IMG/VR virus record: IMGVR_UViG_2778261231_000009
Location: 1-32,704 of that record
DNA: 32,704 nt
Source: a virus
Lineage: Duplodnaviria; Heunggongvirae; Uroviricota; Caudoviricetes
Strand: one strand, 5' to 3'
Shown here: positions 15,520 to 25,739 of the stretch, in pieces
Numbering within the stretch: position 1 is the first letter of the stretch
Layout of the letters: every line of letters begins with the position of its first letter
Program-made: the position numbers and the translations under genes
The notes under the pieces: model-generated
The model's input: only the letters and a program-made list of their open reading frames with translations
The model's database searches: none
What the model was told of the DNA's origin: nothing

Positions 15520-15738
15520 TCAGATGAAGAGGTTCAGTGGATTATCGCTGAGGATCGCTTTGGTTGTCGGCTTATCGGGTTTAGCAGACTGACGCCTGCG
15601 GGCAAAGTATCGGTCAGTGAACCACTCAGCAACTTTTATAACCAGCCCCCCTAAGATGCCAATGAAAACCCACTGCTGCGGGGTGAAATAATCAAGGAAA
15701 GCTTTGAATGTGTACAGTTGCCCGCTCCCGTAATGCAT
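15520..15738 (-). CDS. Small predicted membrane protein (72 aa) in the G-I spacer; may not be coding
   Basis: One hydrophobic helix (WVFIGILGGLVIKVAEWF); weak Shine-Dalgarno; its 3' end overlaps the conserved late motif. No gene is expected at this position in Mu. Confidence 0.3.
   Translation of the reverse strand: MHYGSGQLYTFKAFLDYFTPQQWVFIGILGGLVIKVAEWFTDRYFARRRQSAKPDKPTTKAILSDNPLNLFI
15523..15544 (-). promoter_or_regulatory. Conserved late motif, copy 2 (upstream of I): TAATCCACTGAACCTCTTCATC on the coding strand
   Basis: 17-nt core CCACTGAACCNCTTCAY shared with copies at ~3679-3700 and ~23680-23701; 24 nt to TATCGT, then 7 nt to ATG. Confidence 0.6.
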
Positions 15739-21585: not shown

Positions 21586-21870
21586 TCACAGCTCCAGTTT
21601 TGCGCGAATGAGCAGAATCGCCACCGTGATGACACCGCCTGCAATTCCACCCGTAATCGCACCGGCAGACGCACCACGGCGAGCCGCATCGTCGCTGATG
21701 GTCGTGAGGCGAACATCAATCCGGCTCAGCTTGTCATTAATCCCGCCCAGAATGTCCGGGCTGACGGGGGCCTGCAGGCGTTCGAGCTGAGCGGAAATCC
21801 GGCTCAGCGTTTCCTGCTCGCTCTGGCTGATTGTCGCGCGGCGGGTTCTGCGCTTATGTCTGGCTTTCAT
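21586..21870 (-). CDS. Small membrane protein (C-terminal transmembrane helix), lysis/packaging-region protein of unknown role
   Basis: 94 aa; basic N-terminus, coiled-coil-like middle, Gly-rich hydrophobic C-terminus (GAITGGIAGGVITVAILLI). Confidence 0.5.
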   Translation of the reverse strand: MKARHKRRTRRATISQSEQETLSRISAQLERLQAPVSPDILGGINDKLSRIDVRLTTISDDAARRGASAGAITGGIAGGVITVAILLIRAKLEL

Positions 21871-22121
21871 TTGTCCTGTTTCCTGTCCAGTTTGTTATCA
21901 ATGCGCTCGATAGCCGCTCGCAGCTCCCTCATCGCATCCATCATTGCGGTGTAGTTACTTTTCGCATCCTCACGGCGCTGGTATTCATCCCGGATGCGAT
22001 CAACCGCCTTTTCCAGGTCGGTAATGTCTTTTTGCAGACGGCGTATCCAGATGGTGCCGAAGGTTGCAGCCAGCGCCAGCGCAATCTGAAAGGCCATATC
22101 AAGAGTCATGATGTTGTTCAC
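21867..22121 (-). CDS. Small membrane protein (N-terminal transmembrane helix plus coiled coil), holin/antiholin-like candidate
   Basis: 84 aa; FQIALALAATFGTIWI helix followed by charged coiled-coil. Confidence 0.5.
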   Translation of the reverse strand: MNNIMTLDMAFQIALALAATFGTIWIRRLQKDITDLEKAVDRIRDEYQRREDAKSNYTAMMDAMRELRAAIERIDNKLDRKQDK

Positions 22122-22750
22122 TTCCTGTAATACTCATTTATTGCCTGCAGCCTGCCCTCAATGAGCTGGCACCATGCGCCGTATTCCGCTGAAAACGACA
22201 CTATTCCAGTGGGGGAGAGTCCGCCACCGGTGCCTGTGGTCTGGCCGGTATGACCAGGAGCGCCGCTGGCGGTGGCTGGCAGATGCTGACCAGCGGGGAG
22301 GCTTTCGGATCCTGAGTAGCCAAAGGCTTCACGGAAGAGCTGCAGGCCGCCAGGGCCAATGCCGGTATAACCAGGACCATCTTTATCAAGTGCATCTTTA
22401 AGCCTCTTTTTAAGATCGCGAACAGTCTCGTCATGTGCCTTTTGCTTTTCAGCCAGCTCGCGGGTCAGCGCATCCGCTTTCTGCTGCCAGGCGTTCTGCT
22501 TATCAAGTGCAGCCTTCAGGTCAGCTGCATACTGATTTGCAGCGCTGAGCCTCTCCTGATCCCACTGCCGTTCTTTTTCACTGAAACCATCAGTCAGGCG
22601 TTGCTTCTCCTGGCTGAAGGCCAGCGCCTGAGCGTCCAGCTTGTTGCCTGTGAGGAAGGTGCCGAACCATATCCCGCAGCCTGCCAGAACCACGACGACG
22701 AGCAGCGGTTTCCAGCTAACCCTCAGGATTTTCTGGGCTGCTTCCCACAT
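22118..22750 (-). CDS. i-spanin (Rz-like)
   Basis: Internal start MWEAAQK…; N-terminal helix LLVVVVLAGCGIWFGTFL then a long charged coiled-coil periplasmic domain; contains an embedded lipoprotein ORF in another frame. Confidence 0.65.
   Translation of the reverse strand: MWEAAQKILRVSWKPLLVVVVLAGCGIWFGTFLTGNKLDAQALAFSQEKQRLTDGFSEKERQWDQERLSAANQYAADLKAALDKQNAWQQKADALTRELAEKQKAHDETVRDLKKRLKDALDKDGPGYTGIGPGGLQLFREAFGYSGSESLPAGQHLPATASGAPGHTGQTTGTGGGLSPTGIVSFSAEYGAWCQLIEGRLQAINEYYRK
22201..22395 (-). CDS. o-spanin (Rz1-like outer-membrane lipoprotein), embedded in the i-spanin gene
   Basis: Internal start MHLIKMVLVIPALALAAC… gives a signal peptide with an L-A-A-C lipobox, followed by a Pro-rich mature peptide; entirely inside the i-spanin ORF in a different frame. 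Confidence 0.6.
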   Translation of the reverse strand: MHLIKMVLVIPALALAACSSSVKPLATQDPKASPLVSICQPPPAALLVIPARPQAPVADSPPLE

Positions 22751-22979
22751 CGCGCACCTCTCTGGCTCGTTTGATGGACATATGTTTTGATGCCTGACTC
22801 TGAGCCACCCACGCGCCCAGATAGGTGAGATACAGCTCACCAGGAGTTTCGGGGCGGGTAACGGTGAGCCAGACCAGTACGAAGGAACTGACCAGGAAGG
22901 CCAGAAAAACGATGGTGTCTGACGTAGAGAGACGACCGGTGGCCGGGTTCGTCACCAGATCGCGCAGAGATATTTTCAT
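22716..22979 (-). CDS. Small membrane protein, holin candidate
   Basis: 87 aa with one strong helix (IVFLAFLVSSFVLVWLTV); ATG overlaps the endolysin stop. Confidence 0.5.
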   Translation of the reverse strand: MKISLRDLVTNPATGRLSTSDTIVFLAFLVSSFVLVWLTVTRPETPGELYLTYLGAWVAQSQASKHMSIKRAREVRDVGSSPENPEG

Positions 22980-23620
22980 AGCGCCGCCTTAGCGACATTC
23001 AGCCGCGCCACGCGGTCAGCCTGACCTTCAGCCGGAGGGTTGATACGCCGGGTTACGGCCAGAAAATTGCCTTTGTCAGCCAGCTCGTTGCAGCCATTTG
23101 CCTTCCAGTACCAGGCAGCGCTGCGGGCTGCGTTGAGATACTCCAGTAACAAATCGGGATTCGCGATGAGATCGAGGCCCAGCGCCTTACCGCAAAGGCG
23201 GTAATTATTGCGCAGGGTAATCTGAATCAGGCCACGTCCGCGAAAGCGCCAGCCATCGCCTGATGCTTCATTACCGTTACCCCCCTGATTTGCGTAAACA
23301 TAATTCGCCATTTTTTCAGGGTTACGGGTATAGCGTCGGGCAAATTCAATCTCGCAGGGCTCGATAATACGATTCTTATTGAGATCGAAGTCGCTGCGGA
23401 AAATACGCGCCACGCGCTCAGCATCAGAGTAATAGAGATTTTCACTGAGCCGACTGAAACCCGCGCTTTCATGGCCGGTTTGAGCAATAAAGGCGGCAAG
23501 TCTGGCGGGTGTATTAATTTCGAATTCAGCGGTGGCTTTACCGAATGGTTCAAACCATCGTTGCGCCATCACTGGCGAAAGAGCTGCTGCACGCTGAAAT
23601 TGTGGGAGTGTTAAAAGCAT
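22976..23620 (-). CDS. Endolysin, glycoside hydrolase family 19-like (soluble, no N-terminal signal-anchor)
   Basis: 214 aa; …AAFIAQTGHESAGF… and overall pattern resemble GH19 phage lysozymes; first gene after the late motif and a leader hairpin. Confidence 0.8.
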   Translation of the reverse strand: MLLTLPQFQRAAALSPVMAQRWFEPFGKATAEFEINTPARLAAFIAQTGHESAGFSRLSENLYYSDAERVARIFRSDFDLNKNRIIEPCEIEFARRYTRNPEKMANYVYANQGGNGNEASGDGWRFRGRGLIQITLRNNYRLCGKALGLDLIANPDLLLEYLNAARSAAWYWKANGCNELADKGNFLAVTRRINPPAEGQADRVARLNVAKAAL

Positions 23621-23679: not shown

Positions 23680-23701
23680 GGTGAAGAGGTTCAGTGGAAT
23701 T
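23680..23701 (-). promoter_or_regulatory. Conserved late motif, copy 3 (upstream of lysis cassette): AATTCCACTGAACCTCTTCACC on the coding strand
   Basis: Same 17-nt core as copies 1 and 2; about 60 nt upstream of the endolysin ATG. Confidence 0.6.
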
Positions 23702-24200
23702 AGTTGTCAAACTGTACAACAAACTGATCTTTCTCTTCACTGTACCATTTCACTGTATATGAAAACACTCTATCAGAAACAGTCAAGTTACAGTGTCTCA
23801 CTGCATTAACCCGGTCATAACTCATTTGCGCGGGCTCAGAGAATTTTTCTCCATTCAGCAACTCTGTAAGAACAGAATGGACATCGGATGAATCACAGCC
23901 AGGTAAATCACCTTTGTAAAAATTAATCACTGGGGCAATAAATGCTAAAATGAACATCAGGACATAAACTGATAAGGGGCTAACATTTTTTCCGCCCTGG
24001 ACACTACTGGCATCATCCGAGTCTGATAATGCACTTCCGATTAATTTTTTTCTTTTAAATAGATACAATGGAATGACAATGAAGAATATGAATGCTGAAC
24101 CAATCCCCCAACGGGCAGGTCTTGCAATGTTATTGGTGATAGCATCTTTGTAAACAGCAACAGAAGCACCGAATATAATTAAAGCAATTAAAAACTCCAT
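23700..24200 (-). CDS. AT-rich moron: three-helix membrane protein with ~70-aa C-terminal soluble domain, unknown function
   Basis: 166 aa; hydrophobic segments at roughly residues 2-17, 32-48 and 75-95; region visibly AT-rich versus flanks (estimated by eye at high-30s % GC against mid-50s); occupies the slot between the Mor/C-like gene and the lysis cassette. Confidence 0.7.
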   Translation of the reverse strand: MEFLIALIIFGASVAVYKDAITNNIARPARWGIGSAFIFFIVIPLYLFKRKKLIGSALSDSDDASSVQGGKNVSPLSVYVLMFILAFIAPVINFYKGDLPGCDSSDVHSVLTELLNGEKFSEPAQMSYDRVNAVRHCNLTVSDRVFSYTVKWYSEEKDQFVVQFDN

Positions 24201-24213
24201 GTATATTACCTTT

Positions 24214-24648
24214 TTAAAAAAGTTCTTGTTGATTGATTGATGTGTTTTGTCTGTGCTGGCTTAGTAACTGCCATCCAAAACGATCGCTGAATCCATACTT
24301 AGGGCAAAGAAAGGTCATGGCCATAAGAGAGGATGAACCTTGTTCACGCACTTCGGCGAACTCGGCGAGAAAGCGGCGGTTGCGTAATTCACGAAGGGCA
24401 CGATCACAGCGCGGTAAATAGAGAACTTCTCCGCCGAAATTCTTGATGAGTAATTGGGTTTTATCATCGCCGATAGTATTGCGCAGGAGGGCTGCGCGGC
24501 TGGCCCCCATAGCGCGGAGGCCTTTACCTATCGGGAACGTGGTGCCACCAAAAGCAGAAAGAAGCTGCTCGGTCGCCGGGAAGCCTATCAGGTCAGCTAT
24601 TTGAATCACTGCTGATGGCAGCAGCTCCGTTACCTGTTCCAGATTCAT
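24214..24648 (-). CDS. Mor/C-family transcriptional activator
   Basis: Internal start MNLEQVTELLP…; GGEVLYLPRC… and the basic C-terminal half resemble Mu Mor/C; overlaps the 3' end of the GemA-like gene. Confidence 0.7.
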   Translation of the reverse strand: MNLEQVTELLPSAVIQIADLIGFPATEQLLSAFGGTTFPIGKGLRAMGASRAALLRNTIGDDKTQLLIKNFGGEVLYLPRCDRALRELRNRRFLAEFAEVREQGSSSLMAMTFLCPKYGFSDRFGWQLLSQHRQNTSINQQELF

Positions 24649-25069
24649 TATTACGCTCCCGCTTTTTTCGCCGACTCGCATCAATGCTGAGAGCCTGCAT
24701 GAGTTTGGTTAACTGTTCAGTCGTCAACCACTCGATGTATTTGACGTGAAACATATGATCGCACATTTTCTCGGCATAATTCCACGGACGTTTTGCATCT
24801 GCAAGTAATGCGTTAATTTTAGAAAGAATTGACTCGCGCGTATTGGCAACCTTTGGGCGTCGACCGTGTTTTACTGAGTAGCGAGGAAAACCCTTGTCAT
24901 GCATATATTCCATGACAGCCTGCAGCTCGTCGAGGGTGCATTTAGTGGATGATGTTTTACCGTTGCATAAGCGAGACAGAACACTACGGTAGGTTACCTC
25001 ATCCCACCCCAGATATGCCTGACCGGCTTTAATTGCCCCTATAAGGCCTCGTTTTGCTGGCGTGGACAT
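24593..25069 (-). CDS. GemA-like regulatory protein (Mu gp16, DUF1018-type)
   Basis: Internal start MSTPAKRGLIGAIKAGQAYLGWDEVTYRSVL… preceded by a GGAG Shine-Dalgarno; matches the N-terminal pattern of GemA-family proteins. Confidence 0.7.
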   Translation of the reverse strand: MSTPAKRGLIGAIKAGQAYLGWDEVTYRSVLSRLCNGKTSSTKCTLDELQAVMEYMHDKGFPRYSVKHGRRPKVANTRESILSKINALLADAKRPWNYAEKMCDHMFHVKYIEWLTTEQLTKLMQALSIDASRRKKRERNNESGTGNGAAAISSDSNS

Positions 25070-25136: not shown

Positions 25137-25346
25137 TCAAGGTTTCATTTTGCTGACTGATATACCACCGATTTTCCCTTCGACCCTGACAACCAGACGA
25201 CCATTGCGCATATGCCAGGCTGCCGGGCGGGTTATTACAGTTTCCCGCTCCGATACACCAGGTGTCAGGTAATAATGGAACTGTGAGTCAACGGGGAAGC
25301 GCTGGTTAAAGGTCTTTGCTGTCAGATTTCTCAGGAGATGTCCCAT
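25137..25346 (-). CDS. Hypothetical small protein (69 aa)
   Basis: Internal start MGHLLRNL… with a strong GGAGG Shine-Dalgarno about 8 nt upstream; no recognisable domain. Confidence 0.45.
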   Translation of the reverse strand: MGHLLRNLTAKTFNQRFPVDSQFHYYLTPGVSERETVITRPAAWHMRNGRLVVRVEGKIGGISVSKMKP

Positions 25347-25524
25347 AGTTTTCCTCCAGATTCGCATCGGTGGCAATAATGCTTAATGGCCATAAGAGAA
25401 AGGCAAACCAGTAATTCTGGCGGGATAAATTAGCTAATCCCACTAATCGGGCCAGAATGCATATCCAGCACCAGCCAAGTGTTAAATACATCGCCAGCAA
25501 TATGATAATGAAAGCTATATCCAT
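25306..25524 (-). CDS. Small two-helix membrane protein (about 72 aa)
   Basis: Hydrophobic IAFIIILLAMYLTLGWCWICILARLVGL and YWFAFLLWPLSII; ATG overlaps the upstream stop; overlaps the next ORF by about 40 nt, so one of the two may be mis-called. Confidence 0.4.
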   Translation of the reverse strand: MDIAFIIILLAMYLTLGWCWICILARLVGLANLSRQNYWFAFLLWPLSIIATDANLEENYGTSPEKSDSKDL

Positions 25525-25739
25525 CACTTTATCCCCCGAAGTTTCTTGAAAGATTCAATCGCCTTCTTCATATCAGCCTGAGTCCCCTTATTGCGTACCT
25601 TACGGTTACTGGCGTCGTAATAGTTGAACCGCAGCTTAAGTGGCACCGCCAGCAACTCGACAACCTGGCTGTTATCGCGGAAGAACCAGATTCGGCGGTT
25701 ACCGTTATCCTGGAACTGGCAGCCCGTTACGCTATGCAT
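25524..25739 (-). CDS. Hypothetical small protein (71 aa), basic C-terminus
   Basis: Start overlaps the end of the DUF4406-like gene; no recognisable domain. Confidence 0.45.
   Translation of the reverse strand: MHSVTGCQFQDNGNRRIWFFRDNSQVVELLAVPLKLRFNYYDASNRKVRNKGTQADMKKAIESFKKLRGIK

Follow-up and report, generated by a model that had tools for sequence, protein, structure and literature searches.

The window, i.e. the whole stretch of DNA analyzed here, comprises positions 1 to 32,704 of the IMG/VR virus record IMGVR_UViG_2778261231_000009 (Caudoviricetes; 32,704 nucleotides), and this work concerns its lysis cassette, a run of six genes on the minus strand at positions 21586-23620. Judged by gene content, the window is a Mu-like (transposable) enterobacterial prophage and the cassette is its late lysis operon, because a gene for a Mor-family activator lies upstream and a Mu gp27-like gene downstream (Table 1). 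A GemA/gp16-like gene is also located upstream of the cassette, and the downstream gene, which encodes a DUF1804 protein (Mu gp27 family, 202 bits), is followed by the large terminase gene. A megablast search against the phage collection returned no close phage; one Escherichia coli prophage matched, that of strain FDAARGOS_1303 (NZ_CP070045), which is 94.8% identical and carries annotated Mu-type portal, head-morphogenesis and AAA-ATPase (MuB-like) genes. Protein matches point to Citrobacter or Enterobacter as the likely host.

In the order of transcription, the cassette encodes a GH19-type endolysin, a DUF2644 protein, an i-spanin with an embedded o-spanin, and two small proteins denoted p84 and p94. 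All open reading frames (ORFs) that a preliminary description of this DNA had named were recovered on the minus strand at the same coordinates. Three junctions are ATGA overlaps, one is a 35-nt overlap and the others nearly abut, with a plausible Shine-Dalgarno sequence at each gene; given these overlaps and near-abutments of stop and start codons, the genes form one translationally coupled operon. Matches at the family level for every one of them, and their conservation in more than 100 related loci, show that these are genes rather than chance ORFs. NCBIfam supplies no name for any small protein of the cassette. The annotations are based on Pfam and PHROG profile scans, Kyte-Doolittle hydropathy in 19-residue windows (KD19), AlphaFold2 models and hhalign profile comparisons. 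By these sequence-based measures, this is a conventional holin/soluble endolysin/spanin cassette on a Mu-like backbone, with two conserved small membrane proteins added; the functions named for its genes are predictions throughout.

Table 1 Features of the lysis cassette and of other parts of the window discussed in the text (TMD, transmembrane domain).
Feature	Positions	Strand	Basis or context
p94, 94 aa	21586-21870	minus	phrog_1103, 7e-14
p84, membrane protein, 80 aa (84 aa if GTG 22121)	21867-22109 (ORF to 22121)	minus	phrog_462, 8e-12
i-spanin (Rz-like), 210 aa	22118-22750	minus	phrog_1403 'Rz-like spanin', 6e-30; TMD prediction
o-spanin (Rz1-like), 64-aa precursor	22201-22395	minus	phrog_4719, 1.5e-07; lipobox; start-codon analysis
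DUF2644 protein, 87 aa, best holin candidate	22716-22979	minus	Pfam PF10841; phrog_1322; context
Soluble (cytoplasmic) GH19-type endolysin, 214 aa	22976-23620	minus	Pfam; PHROG; structure alignment
11-bp stem-loop	23620-23651	minus	Fold energy -18.9 kcal/mol; z = -5.2 vs shuffles
ORF of 166 aa, three predicted TMDs	23700-24200	minus	Between Mor and endolysin; no Pfam/PHROG match
Mor-family activator	24214-24684		Upstream of lysis genes; Pfam/PHROG matches
ORF of 73 aa, two strongly hydrophobic segments (TMDs)	25306-25527	minus	Early/middle region, upstream of GemA-like gene
ORF of 72 aa, one TMD, basic C-terminal tail	15520-15738	minus	Head-morphogenesis region
Conserved ORF of ~68 aa	20885-21091	minus	Between gp27-like gene and large terminase

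The endolysin matches Pfam Glyco_hydro_19 at 51.1 bits (cut-off 25.5; E 2e-13) and phrog_181 'endolysin' at E 4e-81, and aligns over residues 3-211 with a soluble GH19 endolysin of known crystal structure, that of phage SPN1S (4ok7, E 1.5e-38), and over residues 17-213 with the solved endolysin 9eoi (E 5e-49). The glutamates of its GHES...SEN motif, Glu51 and Glu60, are kept in both alignments and form a putative catalytic pair, in line with the paper on the SPN1S structure. Helices of that soluble enzyme are the counterpart of residues 3-40 in the alignment. The N-terminus (MLLTLPQFQRAAALSPVMAQRWFEPF) is broken by R10 and R21, the maximal KD19 value is 0.89, and the first 45 residues hold no uncharged hydrophobic run. 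No signal-anchor-release (SAR) segment, i.e. a weakly hydrophobic, charge-free stretch of ~16-20 residues before the catalytic domain, was detected in this protein. The Pfam match, the two structure alignments and the hydropathy profile bear out the preliminary description, which saw here a GH19-type endolysin without an N-terminal hydrophobic segment. For comparison, the N-terminus of the Mu endolysin gp22 reads MAGIPKKLKAALLAVTIAGGGVGGYQ. That description also correctly held the Mu endolysin to be of the SAR type and to work with a small releasing protein: gp22 is an experimentally proven SAR endolysin, freed by the 'releasin' gp25 (DUF2730), and Mu has no holin (PMC9239132). The endolysin of the window, unlike that of Mu, is soluble, and therefore a membrane hole-former would be needed.

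The spanin genes were likewise described correctly from the outset, as an i-spanin with a fully embedded o-spanin that carries an L-A-A-C lipobox; the PHROG matches, the TMD and the lipobox agree with this. The i-spanin gene has a GAGAGG Shine-Dalgarno sequence ahead of its start codon and is conserved in more than 100 loci. Its product carries an N-terminal TMD (residues 16-34), then a coiled coil in the periplasm, a linker rich in Gly and, at the C-terminus, a helix containing a single Cys. The o-spanin ORF spans at most 22201-22434, with a likely start at ATG 22395 preceded by AGAGG, and lies wholly within the i-spanin gene in another frame; relatives have homologous embedded or overlapping ORFs. 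Its signal peptide (MHLIKMVLVIPALALAA, cleaved before the lipobox C) precedes a mature Pro-rich protein of 47 aa with Ser at +2 and one further Cys. A TMD in the i-spanin together with a small Pro-rich lipoprotein that has a lipobox and no Asp at +2 is the expected make-up of a two-component embedded spanin, the predicted function of this pair. In the RefSeq record of the E. coli FDAARGOS_1303 prophage (locus L001, 6533-7165), the embedded o-spanin is left unannotated, a systematic omission for embedded Rz1-type genes.

The DUF2644 gene lies between the endolysin and spanin genes, and its start overlaps the endolysin stop codon in an ATGA. The protein scores 24.1 bits against Pfam DUF2644 (PF10841; cut-off 22) and also matches phrog_1322, and PF10841 is carried by all of its database homologues (52/52). 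A strong TMD1 (residues 22-41) is followed by an acidic loop, a conserved, uncharged, weakly hydrophobic helix 2 (residues 49-64, YLxAWVxQSQASK) and a basic C-terminal tail (KHMSIKRAREVRD). The same plan of two uncharged stretches, acidic loop and basic C-terminal tail holds for all 76 family members examined (79-98 aa): the first stretch has a median length of 23 residues and a mean Kyte-Doolittle (KD) value of 1.6, and the second has 16-19 residues and a median KD of 0.63, with a net charge of +2 or +3 in the flank after it. The AlphaFold2 model (pLDDT 68) is a hairpin of helices 19-41 and 47-79 joined by an RPETP loop. Family statistics and model thus suggest that the protein, previously described as having one helix, is probably a two-helix hairpin with both termini inside (N-in/C-in), weak as helix 2 is.

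In p84, the more likely start codon is ATG 22109, which corresponds to the start of most homologues and to the one that RefSeq gives for the E. coli relative. The protein has an N-terminal TMD (residues 5-22), followed by a cytoplasmic coiled coil of ~58 residues with conserved YQRREDA and RIDxKLDxKxDK motifs; because Asp (D4) precedes the TMD and Arg-Arg follows it, the predicted topology is N-out/C-in. p94 begins with a polybasic stretch (MKARHKRRTRR) and also has a coiled coil; its C-terminal hydrophobic segment is rich in Gly and Ala and bears a GxxxGxxxGxxxG zipper (G66, G70, G74, G78). In an alignment of 22 diverse p94 homologues, G66 and G74 are invariant and G70 is present in at least 90%, whereas G78 is not conserved. 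Neither p84 nor p94 has a Pfam family or an NCBIfam name. The preliminary description had called both single-helix proteins; both ORFs indeed contain a hydrophobic segment, but the basic residues on both flanks of that of p94 leave its transmembrane topology unclear, and the length of p84 is more likely 80 aa.

Covariation of lysis modules and the candidate holin

To compare cassettes, ~270 related loci were fetched from IMG/VR, reference genomes, deposited phages and assemblies, their ORFs were classified with custom hidden Markov models, and representatives were checked against Pfam and PHROGs. A scan of genome contigs added 13 loci and little extra breadth. The key sample consists of 83 non-redundant cassettes that were retrieved via p84 or gp27, not via DUF2644, and is hence unbiased toward the latter. 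Automated statistics of endolysin N-terminal hydrophobicity are skewed by the choice of the longest ORF start and were used qualitatively.

In 70 of the 83 cassettes, a soluble endolysin is followed directly by DUF2644 and no other holin-like gene is present; 69 of these endolysins were classed as GH19, GH108 or Amidase_2 and one (L141) as Peptidase_M15_4. In another 12 cassettes, DUF2644 is missing, the endolysin is an exported one and a gene of a holin family lies upstream of it. These enzymes are either SLT proteins with a signal-like N-terminus or Phage_lysozyme proteins with a SAR-like N-terminus (TMD), and the upstream genes belong to Holin_2-3 (134 bits) or are HP1/P21-holin-like (24-25 bits, below the cut-off). 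The remaining cassette is incomplete, and none of the 83 is discordant (0/83).

Taken over all sources, the soluble enzymes that DUF2644 follows belong to five classes. In prophages of Photorhabdus and Gilliamella, it occurs with a soluble GH108 or Peptidase_M15_3 endolysin and with bona fide DUF2730 (110 and 91 bits) and gp26 proteins. Mu gp25, the DUF2730 prototype, is non-lethal, cannot be triggered by dinitrophenol and is not a holin (PMC9239132); therefore, DUF2644 is the sole holin candidate in these cassettes. A further Mu-like contig has a soluble Phage_lysozyme, and there a two-TMD DUF7940/phrog_1356 protein annotated as 'holin' takes the slot behind the enzyme. Outside the Mu-like phages, PY100-like myophages (Pfam DUF2644, 26 bits) and Sashavirus/9NA-like siphophages likewise have a phrog_1322 gene flanked by those of a soluble endolysin and the i-spanin. 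The endolysin of PY100 is M15_4; in the siphophages, the class differs between Sasha (M15_4) and PDP46 (GH108-like, judged by sequence motifs).

The pair p84 and p94 behaves differently. Both accompany DUF2644, DUF7940 and Holin_2-3 cassettes, and p94, but not p84, is also found in pinholin-like/SAR cassettes. Their failure to track the holin type argues against either protein as an essential holin or a holin-specific antiholin. What varies together is the holin and endolysin unit, which moves as a block, so that DUF2644 behaves as the hole-former for soluble enzymes. The loci thus amount to a natural swap experiment, in which this unit has been exchanged, giving at least six combinations, and the spanin/p84/p94/gp27 part has remained; the pattern nominates DUF2644 as the holin, and p84 + p94 (or gp25 + gp26) stand out as a separate conserved membrane module.

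The preliminary description considered the choice of holin undecidable from sequence, which holds for this sequence taken alone (compare the GenBank label 'putative holin or anti-holin' of Sasha gp54), but the cassette comparison points to DUF2644. We consider it reasonably probable that the DUF2644 protein is the hole-former (holin) of the cassette. Among the features that it shares with holins are its small size, at least one TMD, a charged C-terminal tail and a gene adjoining that of the endolysin, with late expression suggested by the operon structure. The dual-start (Met-Lys-Met) motif is absent from the window protein (MKISL) and, although some homologues begin with MKMSL, it is not conserved.

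Lysis would then follow the canonical three steps and not the holin-less SAR-endolysin/releasin route of Mu. The GH19 endolysin, folded and active, would build up in the cytoplasm. The DUF2644 protein, translationally coupled to it, would insert in the inner membrane as an N-in/C-in hairpin and accumulate until, at a set time, its lesions let the endolysin reach the murein. In the last step, the i-spanin/o-spanin complex would disrupt the outer membrane. Neither p84 nor p94 would be the holin in this scheme.

One alternative assigns hole formation to p84 and makes DUF2644 its antiholin or another regulator. The genomic position of p84 relatives lends this some weight: in the non-Mu contig L277, the order is tail-fibre gene, p84-like gene, endolysin and two-TMD protein, i.e. 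a p84-family gene occupies the classical holin position directly upstream of the endolysin, and in the non-Mu contig L276 a p84-like gene again comes after a tail-fibre gene. Sashavirus has the same layout; there, 'holin or antiholin' is the label that specialist annotators (Center for Phage Technology) gave to both proteins, and in PHROGs the gp52 type is named 'holin'. Against it, p84 persists beside a strong Holin_2-3 match and an exported SLT endolysin and is absent from pinholin-like cassettes. Moreover, a p84-specific antiholin should travel together with p84, which DUF2644 does not, and in Photorhabdus-type cassettes DUF2730 takes the place of p84 while DUF2644 and the soluble endolysin stay, Mu gp25 itself being non-lethal (PMC9239132). 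On balance, p84 is unlikely to be the holin.

Glycine zippers drive oligomeric channel packing, and one is present in TMD2 of the pinholin S21. The conserved zipper of p94, set in a Gly/Ala-rich hydrophobic segment of a protein that is translationally coupled within the operon, could therefore be read as that of a membrane permeabilizer, whether a glycine-zipper pore or a pinholin-like depolarizer, modulated by DUF2644 and p84. We regard this as very improbable: p94 remains unchanged beside gp27 with every kind of holin, including the P21/HP1-like pinholin candidates, a small pore would not release a soluble endolysin of 24 kDa, and the doubtful topology and the lack of a Pfam family offer no support.

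Least credible of all is holin-less lysis as in Mu, with the endolysin reaching the periplasm without a hole-former and p84 acting as releasin. DUF2730 proteins do occur with cytoplasmic endolysins (PMC9239132). However, the window endolysin has neither a SAR nor a signal segment that could anchor it in the membrane before release, p84 is not detectably a DUF2730 protein, and the sister cassettes that have exported endolysins carry recognizable holins.

Returning to DUF2644 as the holin, several points weigh against this assignment. The cassettes are phylogenetically related, so that 70 versus 12 do not count as 82 independent events; the independent evidence consists of ~6-7 distinct endolysin/holin module types and three phage backbones. 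Retrieval anchored on gp27 was limited to relatives of at least 62% identity. The two-TMD topology is uncertain, given that helix 2 of the window protein is weakly hydrophobic (mean KD 0.49) and that confidence in the model is moderate. Profile comparison of DUF2644 with the P21/HP1-like, Holin_2-3 and DUF7940 holin candidates of the sister cassettes revealed no similarity, which is uninformative in itself but lends no support from homology. The placement of p84-family genes in L277 and L276 counts here as well, as does the PHROGs label 'holin' of Sasha gp52, a protein topologically similar to p84, although that label is by annotation only. Finally, a full-text literature search found no experimental test of DUF2644, phrog_462 or phrog_1103 members; no paper mentioning DUF2644 was found in the library searched, and a search on the holins of 9NA/Sashavirus found no study of the family.

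Two sets of observations on the compared loci may be recorded separately. On one Mu-like backbone, the endolysin slot holds at least seven types (GH19, GH108, Amidase_2, Peptidase_M15_4, Peptidase_M15_3, soluble or SAR Phage_lysozyme, and SLT), each paired with a matching holin-type gene (DUF2644, DUF7940, Holin_2-3 or P21/HP1-like; loci L027, L159, L141, L161, L248, L275, L080 and L269). The Photorhabdus/Gilliamella cassettes contain two extra genes (L080, 4747-5007 and 5763-6080; L269, 3736-4002 and 4736-4966). The first encodes a soluble protein of 86-88 aa between endolysin and DUF2644, and the single copy that was scanned matched no Pfam family; the second encodes a DksA/TraR-type zinc-finger protein at the position of Mu gp24 and is also present in the Holin_2-3 cassette L274.

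Possible roles of p84 and p94

p84 occupies the position of Mu gp25, as the third gene after the endolysin, and resembles gp25 in size and predicted topology. The possibility that it is a distant DUF2730 releasin was rejected, since pairwise BLAST, Pfam, profile search followed by Pfam scan, and hhalign with narrow and wide alignments all failed to connect the two. Specifically, p84 has no Pfam match to DUF2730 (PF10805) at E <= 0.1, whereas Mu gp25 itself scores 50 bits. An exhaustive p84 profile search yielded 200 representative clusters (53-201 aa, nearly all 55-125 aa); for the 108 homologues scanned, DUF2730 is not among the 25 families listed of the 59 Pfam families matched. The hhalign probability for p84 against the DUF2730 alignment was 1-8%, below the coiled-coil controls. 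Thus, p84 may act like a releasin-position protein, yet with no demonstrable membership of DUF2730, and is probably an accessory lysis factor.

The type of gp27 provides a different association: cassettes with a Mu-type gp27 have the pair gp25 + gp26, and those with a window-type gp27 have p84 + p94, with p94 always directly upstream of the window-type gp27, whatever the lysis module. This linkage suggests that p84, p94 or both might belong to the gp27/terminase module (DNA packaging, head) and merely adjoin the lysis genes, which we deem possible but rather unlikely. For p84, it is opposed by p84-family genes located away from any gp27, beside endolysins in non-Mu contigs, which argue for a lysis-cassette and not a head-module protein, and by its positional counterpart, Mu gp25, a proven lysis factor (PMC9239132). 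For p94, we have no counter-evidence: a packaging role may apply and would be compatible with DUF2644 as the holin, and the present evidence fits either a lysis role or a gp27/terminase role. A tblastn search with p94 among deposited phages produced no match, and no relation was found between p94 and Mu gp26.

A broader proposal, made tentatively and with clearly less confidence than the assignment of the holin by itself, joins two parts. DUF2644 would be a widespread family of holins that serve soluble endolysins specifically, its helix 2 being dynamic in a SAR-like manner, and p84, with or without p94, would be a fourth lysis component independent of the holin type, a non-homologous analogue of gp25/Lcc6 (see below) that acts from the cytoplasmic membrane face with canonical holins and SAR systems alike. 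If this is the case, the releasin slot of Mu-like phages would have a general role in lysis triggering and not one specific to SAR release. Chamblee et al. (2022) left open both the role of releasin-position proteins that occur with cytoplasmic endolysins and the location of the holin in such phages (PMC9239132), and the main value of the present cassette is as a compact test system for such proteins. For annotation, the comparison offers a naming rule for DUF2644 genes and again shows that RefSeq misses the embedded o-spanin.

Leader hairpin and other small reading frames

The stem-loop immediately upstream of the endolysin gene holds, in its 3' arm, a Shine-Dalgarno-like GGAUGG and the A of the endolysin AUG, and is preceded by a conserved ATACTG (-10-like) motif (upstream to ~23680). 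Its sequence is identical in the E. coli relative despite a different upstream moron. A hairpin with a changed stem is found at the same place in a Klebsiella ST405 phage, a Serratia prophage, Pseudomonas-phage VW-6B and a cassette of the GH108 type, and U6 follows it in some of them; Rfam has no match for the leader hairpin. The stem-loop probably serves as a hairpin in the 5' leader of the late lysis transcript, as a terminator for upstream (middle) transcription, or as both, and ATACTG may be the -10 element of a late promoter.

Three small membrane ORFs lie outside the list of the preliminary description. The 166-aa ORF with three predicted TMDs was considered as a class I holin and rejected: it is AT-rich (35-39% GC vs ~57% for the cassette) and is found with every lysis type. 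Homologues are present in 37 fetched loci. The ORF is absent or replaced in the E. coli and Klebsiella relatives and absent in VW-6B; at this site, close relatives have unrelated genes for secreted or lipoprotein-like products, or none. The ORF resembles a mobile moron, and its site a slot for variable cargo. The 73-aa ORF with two TMDs is an unlikely holin, given its early/middle position, like that of Mu gp19/20, and a homologue in 88 of the 184 DUF2644-positive loci with enough upstream sequence. Mu gp19 and gp20 were formerly proposed to be a holin/antiholin pair, which was later shown to be otherwise. The 72-aa ORF has no obvious Mu counterpart; a hypothetical protein of ~77 aa, matched by position only, is encoded at an apparently equivalent site in the E. 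coli relative. The ~68-aa ORF downstream of the gp27-like gene has a counterpart labelled hypothetical in the E. coli relative, and many related loci have similar small ORFs at the same position.

Comparison with known lysis systems

With the S-R-Rz/Rz1 cassette of lambda, the window shares a soluble endolysin that needs a hole-former, an o-spanin gene embedded in the i-spanin gene, and clustered late co-transcription. The order differs, with the endolysin first and the holin candidate after it in the window. DUF2644 is unrelated to lambda S, probably has two helices instead of three and lacks the dual-start motif; the endolysin is a GH19 enzyme and not a transglycosylase, and the window has two extra small membrane proteins.

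The resemblance to Mu lies in the order of slots: Mor/C, endolysin, spanins, a small coiled-coil protein with an N-terminal TMD, a small protein, gp27 (DUF1804) and TerL, the Mu genes being gp22, the gp23/23.1 spanins, gp24, gp25 (DUF2730), gp26 and gp27. The occupants differ. The soluble GH19 endolysin stands where Mu has a SAR lysozyme, the DUF2644 gene is absent in Mu (and its product shows no similarity to Mu gp24), p84 fails the DUF2730 tests, p94 is unrelated to gp26, and the spanins belong to other PHROG families.

Sashavirus/9NA-like and PY100-like phages (e.g. Salmonella phage Sasha gp52-gp56) share with the window the phrog_1322 gene between soluble endolysin and i-spanin, and their cassette likewise includes a second, N-out/C-in coiled-coil protein with a single TMD. 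For the Sashavirus homologue of DUF2644, the annotation by the Center for Phage Technology reads '2 TMDs, N in, C in' and 'putative holin or anti-holin'. Unlike the window, these phages are virulent and non-transposable, have no p94 homologue and use Peptidase_M15_4 or GH108-like endolysins; their coiled-coil TMD protein, whose gene precedes that of the endolysin, shows no detectable relation to p84.

For p84, a functional model is Lcc6 of the Shewanella phage LambdaSo, likened to it by topology and role and not by sequence. Lcc6 has an N-terminal TMD (residues 5-22) and a cytoplasmic tail, is required for lysis beside holin, endolysin and spanin, and is harmless alone (bioRxiv 10.1101/2024.01.23.576932). 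It differs in being encoded far from the lysis cassette and in having a pinholin and a SAR endolysin as partners. Together, Mu gp25 and LambdaSo Lcc6 are precedents for small proteins with an N-terminal TMD and a cytoplasmic tail that are needed for lysis and harmless by themselves.

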